Shown here: positions 2,653-10,177 of the stretch, piece by piece
Position numbering within the stretch: the first letter of the stretch is position 1
Layout: every line of letters begins with the position of its first letter
DNA from: Acinetobacter phage vB_ApiM_fHyAci03
Direction: 5' to 3' (one strand)
Length of the DNA: 64,000 nucleotides
Sequence record: NC_049438.1
Program-made: the position numbers and the translations under genes
The notes under the pieces: generated by a model
The model's input: the letters and a program-made list of their open reading frames with translations, nothing else
The model's database searches: none
Told to the model about the DNA's origin: nothing

Positions 2653-3917
2653 TTCCATAACTCCAAATATTTATTCTCTAGATCTTCCGGTACAAAGAAA
2701 TGGCTTGCAAAAAATGCGTCCATACCTGTGACAAGATTTCGATCTTCTCGAATAGACATACCACATGCTTTGTCGCCAATTATCCATGAACCGATGATAG
2801 GATAATAACCGTCATGCGGTTGAATATCATGCCATTGTTGATACATATAGCCCCAGTGATCATATTCAGGCACTTTGTGCGATCCGGGTGCTAAATGACT
2901 AAGCTCTTCGCCTGAACAAAATTGTGAACGATAAATATTTGAACCTTCACGTCCATGAATTGCTTTCTTAGCATACTGCCCGGATTTCGGACGATGGTTC
3001 CCATCAAAGCTTGCTAACAAGTTAGGATGATTAGGGAACATTTGCCATAACTTGACAAGCATCGCTTTGTTTGAAAGTAACATTTTCCATGCAGGTTCCA
3101 TCCATCGTGTATTAGTGCAATCAAGAATGTCAGATCCAAATTTCTCTTCAGTCATCCATTCCCAAGGATAAAGTTTAAAACAATTTTTGATCTCTTGGTC
3201 TTGAAGATCAATGAATGATTTAGTTTCGGGACCAGTGCCAATACGTTCTTTCAAAAGGCCAATGTCTTGCATTTGCAGTTCTTTGACTGATAATCCTGCT
3301 CGAAGTGCAGAATCCATCAAATAAACTAAATTGCCAAAGTCTTCATGGCGGAATCCGCCACTTGATGCAAAATGAACTAATTCGCCGGGTTTAAATCGAG
3401 ATTGCCATACTTCTTGAAGAGTTTCATCAATAAGATTATATTGAATGCGCAGATCGTCAGGATAATCTCTTCCATCAGGAAGTTTCTTCATACCTTCGAT
3501 ATAATTCCATTGTGCAACAGAACACTCAAGAATTGAAACTGGTGTATCGCCATTGTACTCAAACATTTTCAATGAATTGTCCCAGCCAAATGCAAGGTCA
3601 AAACGTCCATATAATGATTTGTCGCCACGTTTCCATGATTGTTCAATTAACGGAATTGAATTTTCATCCAAGTTGAAGTATTCAGGGTAATCTCCAGACG
3701 TGACCATTTGCTCTACCATTGCACATGACATATCATGAAGTTCTTGTGTTGCGGCTTGAATGCGATCAATTTCACTTTCTGACATACCATACACTACACC
3801 TTCTTGCCAATACGGTGCACCTTCAGGACCGGATGGAGCATTCCAATAGTTGAAGCCGATTCCCTCTAAAAGCTCGACATGATTAGGGCGAATTTCGAAA
3901 TTAGTATGTCGTTTCAT
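2649..3917 (-). CDS. glutathionylspermidine synthase-family ATP-dependent amidoligase (GspS synthetase-domain homolog)
   Basis: 422 aa. Whole-length resemblance to the synthetase domain of bacterial glutathionylspermidine synthase (GSP_synth family). No amidase (CHAP) domain is present. Confidence 0.65.
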   Translation of the reverse strand: MKRHTNFEIRPNHVELLEGIGFNYWNAPSGPEGAPYWQEGVVYGMSESEIDRIQAATQELHDMSCAMVEQMVTSGDYPEYFNLDENSIPLIEQSWKRGDKSLYGRFDLAFGWDNSLKMFEYNGDTPVSILECSVAQWNYIEGMKKLPDGRDYPDDLRIQYNLIDETLQEVWQSRFKPGELVHFASSGGFRHEDFGNLVYLMDSALRAGLSVKELQMQDIGLLKERIGTGPETKSFIDLQDQEIKNCFKLYPWEWMTEEKFGSDILDCTNTRWMEPAWKMLLSNKAMLVKLWQMFPNHPNLLASFDGNHRPKSGQYAKKAIHGREGSNIYRSQFCSGEELSHLAPGSHKVPEYDHWGYMYQQWHDIQPHDGYYPIIGSWIIGDKACGMSIREDRNLVTGMDAFFASHFFVPEDLENKYLELWK

Positions 3918-3980
3918 ATTTTCACTCAGGTTGTAGTGTATAGAAGTATTTTAAACAATATTACTAGCGATGTAAACTGT

Positions 3981-4265
3981 TTATCTAAATTTAGTATATT
4001 CGCAACGATGTTGAGGGATTTTCATATAACGATCGGCTAATGTTAAACTAACATATGTGCCATCAGAATACCATGTAATAGAACTATCGTTACCTGTATA
4101 TGTAACAATTGAATCGCCTAAAAGTGATAAACATTTGAGTGTAACTGTACCAGCAGGCGTATATGCCTGATTTGCCTTTGGGCGTTGCATTACAAAAATG
4201 CTCAATGCGATAACAATTCCAACAATTAAACAGAATATCATCTGTCCATTATTTAACTTACTCAT
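3981..4265 (-). CDS. small membrane-anchored protein (N-terminal TM)
   Basis: 94 aa with a hydrophobic N-terminal segment. No homolog recognised. Confidence 0.4.
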   Translation of the reverse strand: MSKLNNGQMIFCLIVGIVIALSIFVMQRPKANQAYTPAGTVTLKCLSLLGDSIVTYTGNDSSITWYSDGTYVSLTLADRYMKIPQHRCEYTKFR

Positions 4266-6939: not shown

Positions 6940-7373
6940 TCTACTGCTCCATAAATTGCAGATGTTGCACCATCAGTGTATGTATGTAAAATAACTCGAA
7001 TACCTCGAAGGAGGTTATTTTCAAGAGTGCTAAGATTTGCATCAGTGATATATGCATGTTTAAAGATACCTTCATCTGATGCTTGATCGATTTCGCAAAC
7101 TTTAAGAGGATTTTTTGCATGCTTCTTAATAGATTGCTCATCATAATCTAAATCAAGATTTAGCAACTCGTTATATGTAGGGAAGCGTTTACGTGCTTCG
7201 ATGATTAGTTTACGTTCATTAGATGTCTTAGACAAATTTGCGGCATCGTTAAAGACTTTGACTAAATTGTTGTAAATCGTTGCAGTGAGTTTCATTTCTT
7301 TCTCCAAAGGAGTCAGCTTACGCTGACATCCAATCTTTACGAAGTTGTGCATCATTACCAAATAGCATTTCAA
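6936..7373 (-). CDS. hypothetical protein
   Basis: 145-aa ORF downstream of gene 60. The true start may be an internal Met. Confidence 0.4.
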   Translation of the reverse strand: MKCYLVMMHNFVKIGCQRKLTPLEKEMKLTATIYNNLVKVFNDAANLSKTSNERKLIIEARKRFPTYNELLNLDLDYDEQSIKKHAKNPLKVCEIDQASDEGIFKHAYITDANLSTLENNLLRGIRVILHTYTDGATSAIYGAVE

Positions 7374-7840
7374 ATTGTGCCTTCCAATTTTCAGGAAGTT
7401 TGACTACATCGAAATGTGGTTCACGAATAACTTTTTCATACTCTTCCATCTCCAAGCTTCCGAGACCCTTGATGTAACGGAAACTATAGCCTTTAAGATT
7501 AGGTTTGTCTGCTTCATAATCTTCAATAGTGTAGTACCATTTTTGATCTTTGCCTTTCTGACAAATTGCTACTGGAGTTTTGACAAACTTGATTCGCCCT
7601 TGTTCAAAAAGTTCAGGCCAATTACTGAAAAATGCAAGCAATGATGGATAAATTGAACCAGTCCCGTCTTAATACTCGAAGTTAAAAATTAGATTAGCCC
7701 GAAGGCTAATCTACATCCGCATCTGTCATAATGGCGATGTTGCGATAATTCATAGTACTAGTGAAAGTACGGCGTACATTAGTTTGAGCTTTATAAGTGT
7801 TCATATCAACATCAGTTTTTGCGATTTGAGTTAATTTCAT
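7318..7840 (-). CDS. 60: DNA topoisomerase II small subunit gp60, translated in two segments joined by a 40-nt ribosomal bypass (segment 1 7709..7840, gap 7669..7708, segment 2 7318..7668)
   Basis: Segment 1 (MKLTQIAKTDVDMNTYKAQTNVRRTFTSTMNYRNIAIMTDADVD-stop) matches the T4 gp60 N-terminal 46 aa. Segment 2 (DGTGSIYPSLLAFFSNWPELFEQGRI…) matches T4 gp60 from its landing site (GLGSIYPSLLGFFSNWPELFEQGRI…). The joined product is 160 aa, the same length as T4 gp60. Confidence 0.8.
7692..7711 (-). promoter_or_regulatory. take-off stem-loop of the translational bypass (GAUUAGCC-UUCG-GGCUAAUC), holding take-off codon GAU and stop UAG in the 5' arm
   Basis: Perfect 8-bp stem with a UUCG tetraloop. This is a near copy of the T4 gene 60 take-off hairpin. 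A GAG lies 6 nt 5' of the landing GAC (7666..7668), as in T4. Confidence 0.75.
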
Positions 7841-8648
7841 TGTATACCTCGTAAAATTTTTCATCTGGAGTCCACCCTTTTTCAAATTCTTCAAAAATTC
7901 TACTATATAGGCGACTTCCACTAGTAATACCATTGAGATCTTTCCAGTATTTAATTGGATTTTCAAATGTCTCAATATTGTGTAAGTATATTTTAACATA
8001 CCAATCATAGAAAATTGGTATTGCTTTAACTATTTGTGCGTATATAGGCAAAGAATTCTTGTGATACCAAGGCCTAGCCTTCTTTTTAGCAGCGGCCGCT
8101 TTAGTGGCATTAGTAGTATTTCCTACACCCTTTAATCCTAATTCCTTTATTTTAGGATCATCGACAAATAAAGAGTATGTATTACCTTCGTCATCCTTAA
8201 AGCATGTCTTGCCTTTGATCCCAGCCATCTTTCTTCCGAAATTGACTCCCTTCCATATTGATCTATCAACAGAATCAACATCATGTATTCCAAATTCTCC
8301 AGTCTCAATATTTTTGAGCACCGTTTTATTTGTCATATATTCTTTTGACCATTCTGAAATGGCCTTTGAATGGGCCTCTCTTGCAAATGCGTAAGTCCTA
8401 GATGAGCATTTTCGATCTACTCCAGAATTGCTCATTCTACCTAGTGCAAATGCCATCTGGCTATTTCTGTGAATTTTATATAGTAGCACATGAGCTAAAT
8501 AATGTTCACGATAAGTCAAATGAACCAAATTAGATTTGTCATCAGATCCTCCCATAGAATGAGGAACAATATGGTGCCACTCTCCTTTATCAATAGAGCG
8601 ATGTCTCGCTCTATCAATTAATTCATCATATATTCGTTGATAGTTCAT
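7812..8648 (-). CDS. HNH homing endonuclease (MobA-like)
   Basis: 278 aa. HNH motif EWHHIVPHSMGGSDDKSNLVHLTYREHYLAH. Inserted between gp39 and gp60. Its start overlaps the gp39 stop as ATGA and its 3' end overlaps the gp60 start by 29 nt. Confidence 0.8.
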   Translation of the reverse strand: MNYQRIYDELIDRARHRSIDKGEWHHIVPHSMGGSDDKSNLVHLTYREHYLAHVLLYKIHRNSQMAFALGRMSNSGVDRKCSSRTYAFAREAHSKAISEWSKEYMTNKTVLKNIETGEFGIHDVDSVDRSIWKGVNFGRKMAGIKGKTCFKDDEGNTYSLFVDDPKIKELGLKGVGNTTNATKAAAAKKKARPWYHKNSLPIYAQIVKAIPIFYDWYVKIYLHNIETFENPIKYWKDLNGITSGSRLYSRIFEEFEKGWTPDEKFYEVYNEINSNRKN

Positions 8649-10177
8649 AACAAACTCTTAACTTTCATCCATTTTCCATCAACTTGGATTTCATCATTTT
8701 CATTAACGACGGTTCCATCTTCAAGAGTATACCATTTACCTTCTTCAGCATATGTTCCTGCCGGTTCTCCAATTACAAGTCCAGTGATTGCACAGATATC
8801 GAAAATTTCTTTGTTCTTGAGCATTTCTGCTGGTGTCATACCCCATGTATTCATTACTTTACCGCGTAATGGATAACCGCCATGAAGTTCACGATCACGA
8901 GTTGAAATTAAATAACCAATCGCAGAATCACCTTCTGTTAAAAATAATGTTGTCTCAACTGTGTCATCACCATATTTGTTAGCTTTAATATGTTTTGCAA
9001 CTTTTGCCTTTGCAGCTTTCTTTGCAGCACGAGTGTTTGCAGCTTTTTCAGCAGCTAATAACTTTGCAAGAACTGCTTCAATGATAGGCATCAAAATAGA
9101 TTCATTTGCAATAAGCATCCGAGCCAATTTCTTGATGTCAATATCAATATGAGCTTTCACTTCACCCCATGGAGAAGTTAATCGTTCTTTTGTTTGAGAA
9201 TCAAAACGCATATTAGACATGTTCTTAATGAATAATAACATAGTCAAGCATTCTTTGATTCGTGCTTTATTAACTTCAACTTTATGGCGTCGTTTGATTT
9301 GCGGAATCAATTCATTTGTCAATTCATCGATCACATAATCAATATGAGAACCACCAACCTTTGTGTGGATTGCATTGACAAATGACAAGTGTCTGAATCC
9401 ATCATCTGAACGTCCAATAGCTAATTGAACATTGTCCGTTTCCATGATGATTGCATCTTCATCATACATTTTAGCGTATTTTTTGAAGTTTCCAAGTACT
9501 CGAACGTTGTTGAATTTGAATTGGATGTCTGGGTAAATAACCGCTAAGATTTGTAGACGATCCTCAACAATTTGTTCGATCGTGCTATCTATACCATCAC
9601 AATCAAGCAATGAGAAATCCGGCACAAATGATACTTCAGTACCTTGTTTTCCACCTGCTTTTGTTTTCCAATCAATGTTTGACATGTTGTCTGAACATTT
9701 AACAACGATAGTGTTTTCACCATCACATGTTGTACCAATGAATTCTTTAGAGAAAATATTCGTTAATGAACTACCAACACCATTGAGGCCTGCAGTTTTA
9801 CGAGTTGCATCATCACCAAAGTTGCCTCCAGCTTTAGTTCGAGTCCAACAAGCTACAGCGCCAGGTAGTTGAGTGCCTTCTGGAGTAGTAATCATTGCCT
9901 GTGGAATACCACGACCATTGTCTTTAACTGTAATTTGATTGCCTGAAATCTTGACTTCAATTTTATTTGCAAATGCAAAATCAGTTCGAATTGCTTCATC
10001 TAATGAATTATCAATAATCTCATCAATAATTTTGACTAAAGCCGGAACATATTTAAGTGTTTGAAATTTGCCAAACAAAAACCGATCATGATTTTCTGAT
10101 GTTGTAGAACCAACATACATGCCTGGACGCTTTAACACATGTTCACGATCAGATAACATTTTAATTTCAGTGCTCAT
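8645..10177 (-). CDS. 39: DNA topoisomerase II large subunit gp39 (GyrB-like ATPase)
   Basis: 510 aa. GHKL ATPase motifs (…IIDNSLDEA…, …DNGRGIP…, …GLNGVGSS…). Corresponds to T4 gp39. Confidence 0.9.
   Translation of the reverse strand: MSTEIKMLSDREHVLKRPGMYVGSTTSENHDRFLFGKFQTLKYVPALVKIIDEIIDNSLDEAIRTDFAFANKIEVKISGNQITVKDNGRGIPQAMITTPEGTQLPGAVACWTRTKAGGNFGDDATRKTAGLNGVGSSLTNIFSKEFIGTTCDGENTIVVKCSDNMSNIDWKTKAGGKQGTEVSFVPDFSLLDCDGIDSTIEQIVEDRLQILAVIYPDIQFKFNNVRVLGNFKKYAKMYDEDAIIMETDNVQLAIGRSDDGFRHLSFVNAIHTKVGGSHIDYVIDELTNELIPQIKRRHKVEVNKARIKECLTMLLFIKNMSNMRFDSQTKERLTSPWGEVKAHIDIDIKKLARMLIANESILMPIIEAVLAKLLAAEKAANTRAAKKAAKAKVAKHIKANKYGDDTVETTLFLTEGDSAIGYLISTRDRELHGGYPLRGKVMNTWGMTPAEMLKNKEIFDICAITGLVIGEPAGTYAEEGKWYTLEDGTVVNENDEIQVDGKWMKVKSLL

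Follow-up and report, generated by a model that had tools for sequence, protein, structure and literature searches.

The window analysed here, i.e. 64,000 nucleotides (nt) of the genome of Acinetobacter phage vB_ApiM_fHyAci03 (NC_049438.1), contains a gene for the large subunit of DNA topoisomerase II that is split by a MobA element, a cassette which carries the HNH-family homing endonuclease gene mobA and ends with a 43-nt insert. In our favoured explanation, to which we assign as a whole a probability of about 0.9, this element interrupts the topoisomerase gene, the 43 nt are bypassed during translation and MobA confers homing. Bypassing in gene 60 of phage T4 is the classic extreme of translational recoding and, to our knowledge, remained the lone example of bypassing for decades. 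The locus in vB_ApiM_fHyAci03 is real, well understood and already known from a preprint (Manning & Atkins, bioRxiv 2022, doi 10.1101/2022.08.31.505936), and our analysis is a confirmation and no discovery. All genes in 7318..10177 are on the minus strand, and all coordinates refer to the whole window (table 1).

The element and the gene that it interrupts

The edges of the element become visible by comparison with relatives that do not carry it. Nine of the 51 matching Acinetobacter phage records hold the element; the others, which are about 97% identical and include Berthold, Lazarus, Konradin and AB-Navy4, cover the query in two pieces and hold a fused gene, i.e. a single gene for a large subunit of 605 amino acids (aa). 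Aligned with Berthold (97.6% identity over the aligned parts), the window is 98% identical until about 8762/8757 (...GGT GAA CC|), where about 1 kb of unique DNA begins; this is followed by HomR, a 42-nt element-borne copy of a topoisomerase segment, and by the 43-nt insertion, after which homology is collinear again. In total, 55 nt of the parental gene have given way to the element, and carrier and fused alleles differ by a net 1043 nt (3101 versus 2058 nt). The gene is broken behind ..GEPA (aa 473), and the last codon of the element is the landing codon for Asp in MTDADVD|G. By sequence, the gene is split inside its Toprim domain, which in the 605-aa Berthold protein occupies aa 410-492 with 17.9 bits, less than the Pfam gathering cut-off of 23.1. 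What the element supplies is a 37-aa tail of the upstream open reading frame (ORF1), the 278-aa MobA, the start of ORF2 with a 30-aa N-terminal extension (NTE), HomR as a synonymously recoded copy of the lost segment, and the 43-nt insert. Endonuclease, split and bypass insert are absent together from the records with about 97% identity.

Among close kin, the region is 98.2% identical to that of AC4 and 97.5% identical to that of KARL-1, both of which belong to the genus Lazarusvirus (Straboviridae, Twarogvirinae). Three phages share the element with 99.4% identity, with flanks that reach only 97.5-98.2%, and since the element is more alike than its flanks, this is as expected for a recent transfer.

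The gene 39-like ORF1 begins with 473 aa from the N-terminal part of the topoisomerase II large subunit, to which an element-encoded C-terminal extension (CTE) of 37 aa is attached. It matches the Pfam profiles DNA_gyraseB and HATPase_c as well as PHROG 543 ‘DNA topoisomerase II large subunit’ (E 1.9e-211, aa 2-473), and it covers positions 4-477 of the GyrB profile TIGR01059. Its CTE can be aligned with the T4-type CTE (GKWYTLE..VVNENDEIQVDGKWMKV versus GEWFTFE..IVNENDEVQINGKWITV), and the ORF1 tail GKWYTLE-DGTVVNENDEIQVDGKWMKV is alignable with the T4-type tail.

Just 5' of the element junction, at 8779..8768 on the minus strand, there is a 12-nt patch, CTTGTAATTGGA, which encodes GLVIGE and differs at five positions from TTAACTATTGGT (GLTIGE), the sequence of AC4, KARL-1, DLP2, Stupor and the fused Berthold allele. 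This patch was absent from all other phage records searched. Possibly, a co-conversion tract from a donor has been left behind here, because T4-type phages read GLVLGE at the same place.

Table 1. Features of the split topoisomerase locus in the vB_ApiM_fHyAci03 window.
Feature	Position	Strand	Remarks
ORF1 (gene 39-like), 510 aa	10177..8645	minus	stop TGA 8647..8645
MobA element (CTE coding, mobA, NTE with HomR, bypass insert), ~1097 nt	8762..7666	minus	5' edge ambiguous, 8757-8762
CTE of ORF1, 37 aa	8758..8648	minus	homologous to T4-type CTE
mobA, intact 278-aa HNH-family homing endonuclease gene	8648..7812	minus	4-nt overlap with ORF1; 29-nt out-of-frame overlap with ORF2 start
Shine-Dalgarno sequence GAGG, 6 nt upstream of ORF2 start	7850..7847	minus	read from the sequence; ribosome binding site annotated at the corresponding place of the AC4 record
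ORF2 (gene 60-like) part a, 44 codons, MKLTQIAKTDVDMNTYKAQTNVRRTFTSTMNYRNIAIMTDADVD	ATG 7840, TAG 7708..7706	minus	
ORF2 NTE, 30 aa, MKLTQIAKTDVDMNTYKAQTNVRRTFTSTM	7840..7751	minus	PHROG 19082, T4 gp60 alignment
HomR, 42 nt, NYRNIAIMTDADVD	7750..7709	minus	Berthold alignment
Take-off stem-loop, 10 bp and UUCG tetraloop, UAGAUUAGCC-UUCG-GGCUAAUCUA	7713..7690	minus	holds take-off codon and UAG
Take-off codon GAU	7711..7709	minus	ORF2 Asp44 = T4 Asp45
Coding gap, 43 nt (UAG CCUUCGGGCUAAUCUAAUUUUUAACUUCGAGUAUUAA GAC)	7708..7666	minus	opens with in-frame UAG 7708..7706
Mini-Shine-Dalgarno sequence GAG	7677..7675	minus	6 nt 5' of landing codon, spacer UAUUAA
Landing codon GAC	7668..7666	minus	same tRNA-Asp as GAU; next codon decoded is GGG 7665..7663
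ORF2 part b, 115 aa and stop	7665..7318	minus	C-terminal Toprim-associated region; stop 7320..7318

Probable signals for translational bypassing in ORF2

An important question is whether the two parts of ORF2 give rise to a single protein. When the two parts are joined by a hop from GAU to GAC, the resulting ORF2 product has 159 aa, with NIAIMTDADVDGTGSIYPSLLAFFSNWPELFEQGR as the tryptic peptide at the junction. The DNA of the fused relative reads GAT GTC GAC GGG ACT (..DVDGT..) at this place, and the fused protein (...DADVDGTGSIY...; DADVDGTGSIYPSLL; ...NYRNIAIMTDADVDGTGSIYPSLLAFF...) is the exact product of such a hop. In the gp60 profile PHROG 7229, the 44-aa piece takes up positions 4-47 and the 115-aa piece positions 48-163, i.e. 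the two abut. Similarly, residues 28-156/158 of the joined ORF2 align to GyrB/ParE profiles as a single stretch across the junction, and they enter the profile at position 483, with ORF1 ending at 477. We infer that a single gp60-like protein is probably made by bypassing, because the hop restores the fused sequence exactly and because the profile alignment is continuous.

The signals which would direct this hop are found on both sides of the gap as well as inside of it. The 44-aa piece matches PHROG 19082 (E 1.2e-22), and its NTE contains the residues of the nascent-peptide signal—Y16, Q19, V22 and R23-R24—at the same positions as in T4, with the equivalents of T4 Y33, M39 and T40 found one position earlier. 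In HomR, the protein sequence is 100% identical to that of the fused Berthold allele, with the DNA being only 83% identical due to seven synonymous differences in 42 nt. The take-off hairpin has a minimum free energy of -13.9 kcal/mol (z -3.4), which none of 200 shuffled sequences equalled, and the hairpin of T4 has -14.7 kcal/mol. In a comparison of six cassette types (this window, T4, Proteus PM2, Salmonella S16, Stupor and one metagenome contig), 96.7% of the cells in the hairpin are paired and four pairs exhibit double compensatory changes; its pairing score was reached by none of 500 shuffles, and slid controls were at most 43% paired. Family E-values, stability of the hairpin and the abutting profile pieces go well beyond what chance would give.

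At the other end of the gap, the landing codon is the sole GAY triplet within the 43 nt; the 18 nt in front of it, which include the mini-Shine-Dalgarno sequence, consist of 78% A/U, and a TAA immediately 5' of it closes the frame of part b. Part b itself matches Pfam TOPRIM_C in a search that was run on 7321-7662, i.e. one codon short of part b. No tRNA gene was found in the window, hence there is no nearby phage tRNA-Asp, and an Rfam search of the bypass region gave no matching family.

Two further structural observations concern this region. The hairpin is directly followed by AUUUUUAAC (together 7713..7681, minus strand), so that it also fits the pattern of an intrinsic terminator; in the AC4 record a ‘terminator’ is annotated at the take-off hairpin, and the T4 hairpin is not followed by a U-run. 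Judging from this pattern, the terminator-like hairpin could attenuate transcription of the 3' part of ORF2. In addition, in a 121-nt fold (7760..7670, minus strand), UAGUACUAUGAA, which is located just upstream of HomR, pairs with the gap's 3' part including the GAG mini-Shine-Dalgarno sequence (UUCGAGUAUUA). This fold has a z-score of only -2.2, with four of 200 shuffles being equally stable, and might correspond to the auxiliary structures found 5' or 3' in T4, or have arisen by chance.

The MobA endonuclease

MobA exhibits the motif EWHHIVPH...SNLV...REH..AH, in which residues H25, H26, N40, H49 and H53 do not vary across seven aligned sequences, i.e. the MobA of the window and six homologues. 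Profile matches to homing or HNH endonucleases are strong (PHROG 655 and 12434), with E 4.7e-50 for PHROG 655 ‘homing endonuclease’. Over its full length, the protein is 48.9% identical to the intact MobA of the T4-type phage BF15 in a global alignment, and residues 1-275 are 49.6% identical to T4-type MobA by tblastn; the MobA of AC4 is 100% identical to that of the window.

The gene overlaps both of its neighbours out of frame. The ORF1 stop TGA (8647..8645) and the mobA start ATG (8648..8646) form an ATGA overlap, and the two overlaps of mobA, 4 nt and 29 nt, compare with published ranges of 1-20 and 8-32 nt, respectively. An earlier note on this DNA had described a 510-aa gp39 in ATGA overlap with a 278-aa HNH ORF, a motif of the form HHIVPH…N…H and an endonuclease 3' end that overlaps the first 29 nt of gene 60. 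The coordinates of the first claim are borne out by the sequence, the motif is present and invariant among MobA homologues, and the last overlap follows from the ATG at 7840 and the end of the endonuclease ORF at 7812. The note had also named a pseudogene as something that would refute its reading, and this the HNH ORF is not, as it matches BF15 MobA from end to end and AC4 MobA with 100% identity.

Relation to the T4 cassette and to other systems

The T4 50-nt bypass cassette has been described in earlier work (Huang et al. 1988; Weiss et al. 1990; Bonocora et al. 2011). The order gene 39 - mobA - gene 60 with out-of-frame overlaps is common to T4 and the window, as is the insertion site within the Toprim domain, and in both cases CTE, NTE and HomR are supplied by the element. 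Residues 1-46 of T4 gp60 and the N-terminus of ORF2 in the window share 56.5% identity. In both phages, the take-off codon is succeeded by a stop codon, the top of the hairpin is identical (UAGCC-UUCG-GGCUA), a GAG is located 6 nt before the landing codon, and Y16, Q19, V22 and RR are kept.

On this common plan, the two cassettes have diverged in a number of details. The codons used for take-off and landing are GAU/GAC for Asp in the window, whereas they are GGA/GGA for Gly in T4. The lower stem of the window hairpin carries compensatory changes relative to T4, and a U-run comes after the hairpin. In the window, mobA starts with ATG in a 4-nt overlap, in contrast to GTG in a 23-nt overlap in T4-type phages, and it is intact, whereas it is an annotated pseudogene in laboratory T4. 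Identity to T4-type proteins is only 49% for MobA versus 62.5% for ORF1.

By the homology of its parts, the window cassette is a diverged orthologue of the T4 mobA/gene 60 cassette and no independent invention, because CTE, MobA, NTE, take-off hairpin and mini-Shine-Dalgarno sequence are all homologous to those of T4. These homologies speak for a single origin, with ancient divergence between phage clades and recent mobility inside each of them, a reading which agrees with Manning & Atkins (2022). The earlier note had recognized in the arrangement 39 - HNH endonuclease - 60 with an untranslated insert the T4-like mobile cassette, and since all modules are homologous this identification holds. 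It was also right in describing diverged endonuclease sequence, bypass codons and gap length (49% MobA identity, GAU/GAC and 43 nt). Its suggestion of an older lineage is in line with the ancient divergence between clades, but that of independent evolution finds no support in view of the homology of all modules to T4. The comparison with fused relatives that it had asked for revealed no split that predates the endonuclease: endonuclease, split and insert are missing together.

Related principles are also known from other systems. In the nrdA gene of the Aeromonas phage Aeh1, which is split by MobE, a Mob-family HNH gene likewise resides inside an essential gene, and two polypeptides with element-derived tails reassemble into an active enzyme. 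The Aeh1 case differs, however, in its target gene and in being without a translational bypass insert, and MobE-type proteins match the MobA of the window only in the N-terminal HNH domain. The mitochondrial ‘byp’ elements of Magnusiomyces likewise combine programmed bypassing, matched or wobble-matched codons and a poorly decoded A-site codon. By description, they are set apart by unrelated sequences, by many short inserts per genome and by being without an associated homing endonuclease or a similar nascent-peptide signal.

A model of bypassing and homing

From T4 experiments and the conserved signals, the following steps can be derived for the window. The ribosome translating ORF2 would pause with peptidyl-tRNA-Asp on GAU and an A site occupied by the UAG stop codon. 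The nascent peptide (Y16, Q19, V22 and RR) and the UUCG take-off hairpin would promote the dissociation of codon and anticodon, and the ribosome would slide over 43 nt, with the GAG mini-Shine-Dalgarno sequence positioning the tRNA for re-pairing at GAC. Resumption at GGG would yield a gp60-like subunit of 159 aa with ...MTDADVDGTGS..., the native motif for metal binding.

At the level of DNA, the model draws on MobA homing and self-protection in T4/T2 (Bonocora et al. 2011, as summarized by Manning & Atkins, doi 10.1101/2022.08.31.505936). By analogy, the parental equivalent of HomR would contain the MobA nick site. MobA would nick the uninterrupted allele of a co-infecting relative within this HomR-equivalent region, and the subsequent repair would copy the entire cassette into this allele. 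The insert, which adjoins HomR about 20 nt from the nick site, would render the carrier allele resistant to MobA, and bypassing would be the price for a functional topoisomerase. The evidence from the window and its relatives is consistent with such MobA-driven inheritance of the cassette and protection of the carrier.

Weighing the alternatives

A number of observations weigh against the combination of bypassing and MobA homing at this locus. Concerning MobA, its score with the Pfam HNH profile (PF01844) is 19.9 bits at a gathering cut-off of 21.4, and a PDB sequence search with MobA gave no significant solved structure, with HNH-motif matches, including weak ones to the HNH regions of Cas8f-HNH and IscB, being insignificant. 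In the nearly identical copy of KARL-1, mobA is frameshifted and annotated as two ORFs, in DLP2 it is truncated, and with 99.4% identity the copies of the element are too alike for a test of purifying selection on mobA; MobA here may be intact but inactive. Concerning bypassing, the codons for take-off and landing do not have the same wobble base (GAU versus GAC), take-off occurs one codon earlier than in T4, the distance from Y16 to the take-off residue is 28 residues versus 30 in T4, to which a 1-aa deletion in the NTE contributes, and the gap is 7 nt shorter (43 versus 50 nt), with a frame offset of +1 rather than +2. Finally, a literature search found no experiment on the Acinetobacter variant, be it on bypass efficiency, protein product or MobA activity.

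The frameshifted and truncated copies of mobA in KARL-1 and DLP2, together with the annotated pseudogene in laboratory T4 and the progressive loss of the endonuclease after insertion according to Manning & Atkins, would also fit a stranded relic, in which bypassing works as the topoisomerase needs it, but MobA cuts nothing and the element is immobile. In the window, however, mobA has its full length, its HNH residues are all invariant and its protein is 100% identical to that of AC4, and the patchy distribution of the element among relatives of about 97% identity as well as its own 99.4% identity versus 97.5-98.2% in the flanks in three phages speak for mobility, which makes a relic unlikely. 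Even less probable, to a degree that we would be surprised to find it true, is that there is no bypassing at all, but independent initiation of a 44-aa ORF and of a C-terminal ORF, such that the large subunit would come in three or more pieces. The annotators of AC4, KARL-1, DLP2 and phi1_092060 have indeed called two coding sequences (CDSs), the AC4 record lists a ribosome binding site before the second one, and the ORF list contains a TTG-initiated ORF of 107 aa; TTG 7641 is also the start given in several GenBank records. Yet such initiation would lose GTGSIYPS and leave the essential acidic motif MTDADVD stranded on a 44-aa peptide; the ‘ribosome binding site’ of AC4 lies in the mini-Shine-Dalgarno region; every experimentally defined bypass signal of T4 is present in correct register, and the hop restores the sequence of the fused relative exactly.

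What could be adduced for a convergent origin, i.e. an HNH gene and a recoding insert, both unrelated, having arrived at the T4 site by chance, is the gap of 43 rather than 50 nt, the use of Asp rather than Gly codons and the difference of about half of the MobA residues from T4. Against it stand the full-length 49% identity of MobA, the alignable CTE and NTE, the identical hairpin top and mini-Shine-Dalgarno spacing, and intermediates in Proteus, Salmonella and metagenomic phages that connect the forms; by the homology of every module, convergence is effectively refuted. A simple +1 frameshift is ruled out by the TAG in frame 0 and the TAA directly 5' of the landing codon, and a pseudogene or sequencing error is ruled out by the occurrence of the same structure in three independent genomes at 99.4%. 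Thus, the split by a MobA element, bypassing of the 43 nt and homing by MobA remain our favoured explanation.

Prior description and annotation

Manning & Atkins (bioRxiv 2022, doi 10.1101/2022.08.31.505936) describe a MobA element of 1097-1106 nt, which consists of CTE, MobA (269-279 aa), NTE, HomR and bypass cassette, is accompanied by a deletion of 55-75 nt, and has inserted independently and recently in six phage clades including Acinetobacter phages. Their clade 5 comprises KARL-1, ‘Aci03’ (vB_ApiM_fHyAci03), Stupor and Abraxas, and they report GAU/GAC as take-off and landing codons for ‘KARL and Aci03’, with Berthold as the ‘parental’ fused comparison. A stretch of 787 nt printed in their clade-5 alignment is exactly 9157..8371 of the window; it can be identified as Aci03 because the CTTGTAATTGGA patch occurs once in the file, KARL-1 differs and the Aci03 ORF1 protein has GLVIGEPAG. 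The 87 nt printed for the 3' part of the Aci03 bypass are also exactly those of the window. Their clade-5 element is the same object as the element in the window, and nothing of substance differs. Our literature search found this description as a preprint only, with no journal version or other paper, and the genome papers of fHyAci03 and DLP2 do not mention the cassette.

In sequence records, annotation of the locus is inconsistent. In AC4, KARL-1, DLP2, Stupor and phi1_092060, the halves of ORF2 are listed as CDSs in their own right, whose starts are invented and which bear names such as ‘hypothetical protein’ or ‘DNA topoisomerase II’, and translational bypassing is marked in none of these five, but it is marked in T4 records. 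In GenBank records of these phage-therapy candidates, the locus wrongly appears as three or four individual CDSs, labelled ‘topoisomerase’ or ‘hypothetical’.

Beyond annotation, natural variants such as that of the window represent ready-made mutants for testing which bypass signals are essential, a value already pointed out by Manning & Atkins (2022) with fHyAci03 included. Useful traits in this respect are the wobble-mismatched GAU/GAC pair, the 43-nt gap, the shifted take-off and the shorter spacing of the peptide signal. Furthermore, the polymorphism with sister phages that carry the fused gene makes it possible to measure MobA homing cleanly in therapeutic Acinetobacter phages.

Exchange between element variants

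Two genomes deposited after the 2022 preprint, DLP2 and phi1_092060, carry chimeric elements. In phi1_092060, the element is 100% of the Stupor type through CTE, mobA and most of the NTE, and a patch of about 120 nt, which covers HomR and bypass (equivalent to ~7775..7655; ~1610-1735 in its own locus), is identical to the window type; a further small patch of the window type is located at the equivalent of ~8110..8071. DLP2 changes from Stupor type to window type at ~8120 and retains the latter until ~7655, i.e. for about 460 nt (~2680-3140 in its own locus). In both phages, the window-type module has 98-100% identity, and the downstream flanks are Stupor-like. These mosaics show that element variants have recombined and that their HomR/bypass module was exchanged independently of mobA.

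In both chimeras, the Stupor-type module GGU/AGG/GGC is replaced by GAU/UAG/GAC, and the tracts are anchored at the HomR/bypass end. Short tracts anchored in this way are the pattern expected if the MobA of one variant nicks the ‘protected’ allele of the other and a short conversion tract is copied in during repair. Conceivably, therefore, element variants in Acinetobacter phages invade one another, with HomR and the 43-nt bypass module overwriting the Stupor-type module, although we consider this a speculative proposal that is rather improbable at present. If true, the immunity that the bypass insert confers would be variant-specific only, and the spread of the bypass module need not depend on that of the endonuclease gene.

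Searches for further cassettes added few cases. A scan of IMG/VR with the MobA alignment yielded 80 loci, with full-length MobA in a single one, that of Proteus phage Pm5461; in the remaining loci, the match was confined to the HNH domain at the N-terminus of other Mob-type endonucleases, i.e. there were no extra cassettes. Pattern scans of IMG/VR and of metagenomes revealed no further copy of the 43-nt GAU/GAC type outside of Acinetobacter phages. A pattern scan for the recoded Toprim motif plus hairpin also detected only Pm5461 in IMG/VR, and in metagenomes the same pattern was found in T4 itself and in one GGG/GGA variant. On the metagenome contig Ga0209174_10012078 (minus strand, ~3915-4010), a GGG take-off codon is followed by UAG and a GGA landing codon; the hairpin is longer (GAUGGGUAGCC-UUCG-GGCUACCCAUC) and the topoisomerase context more divergent.

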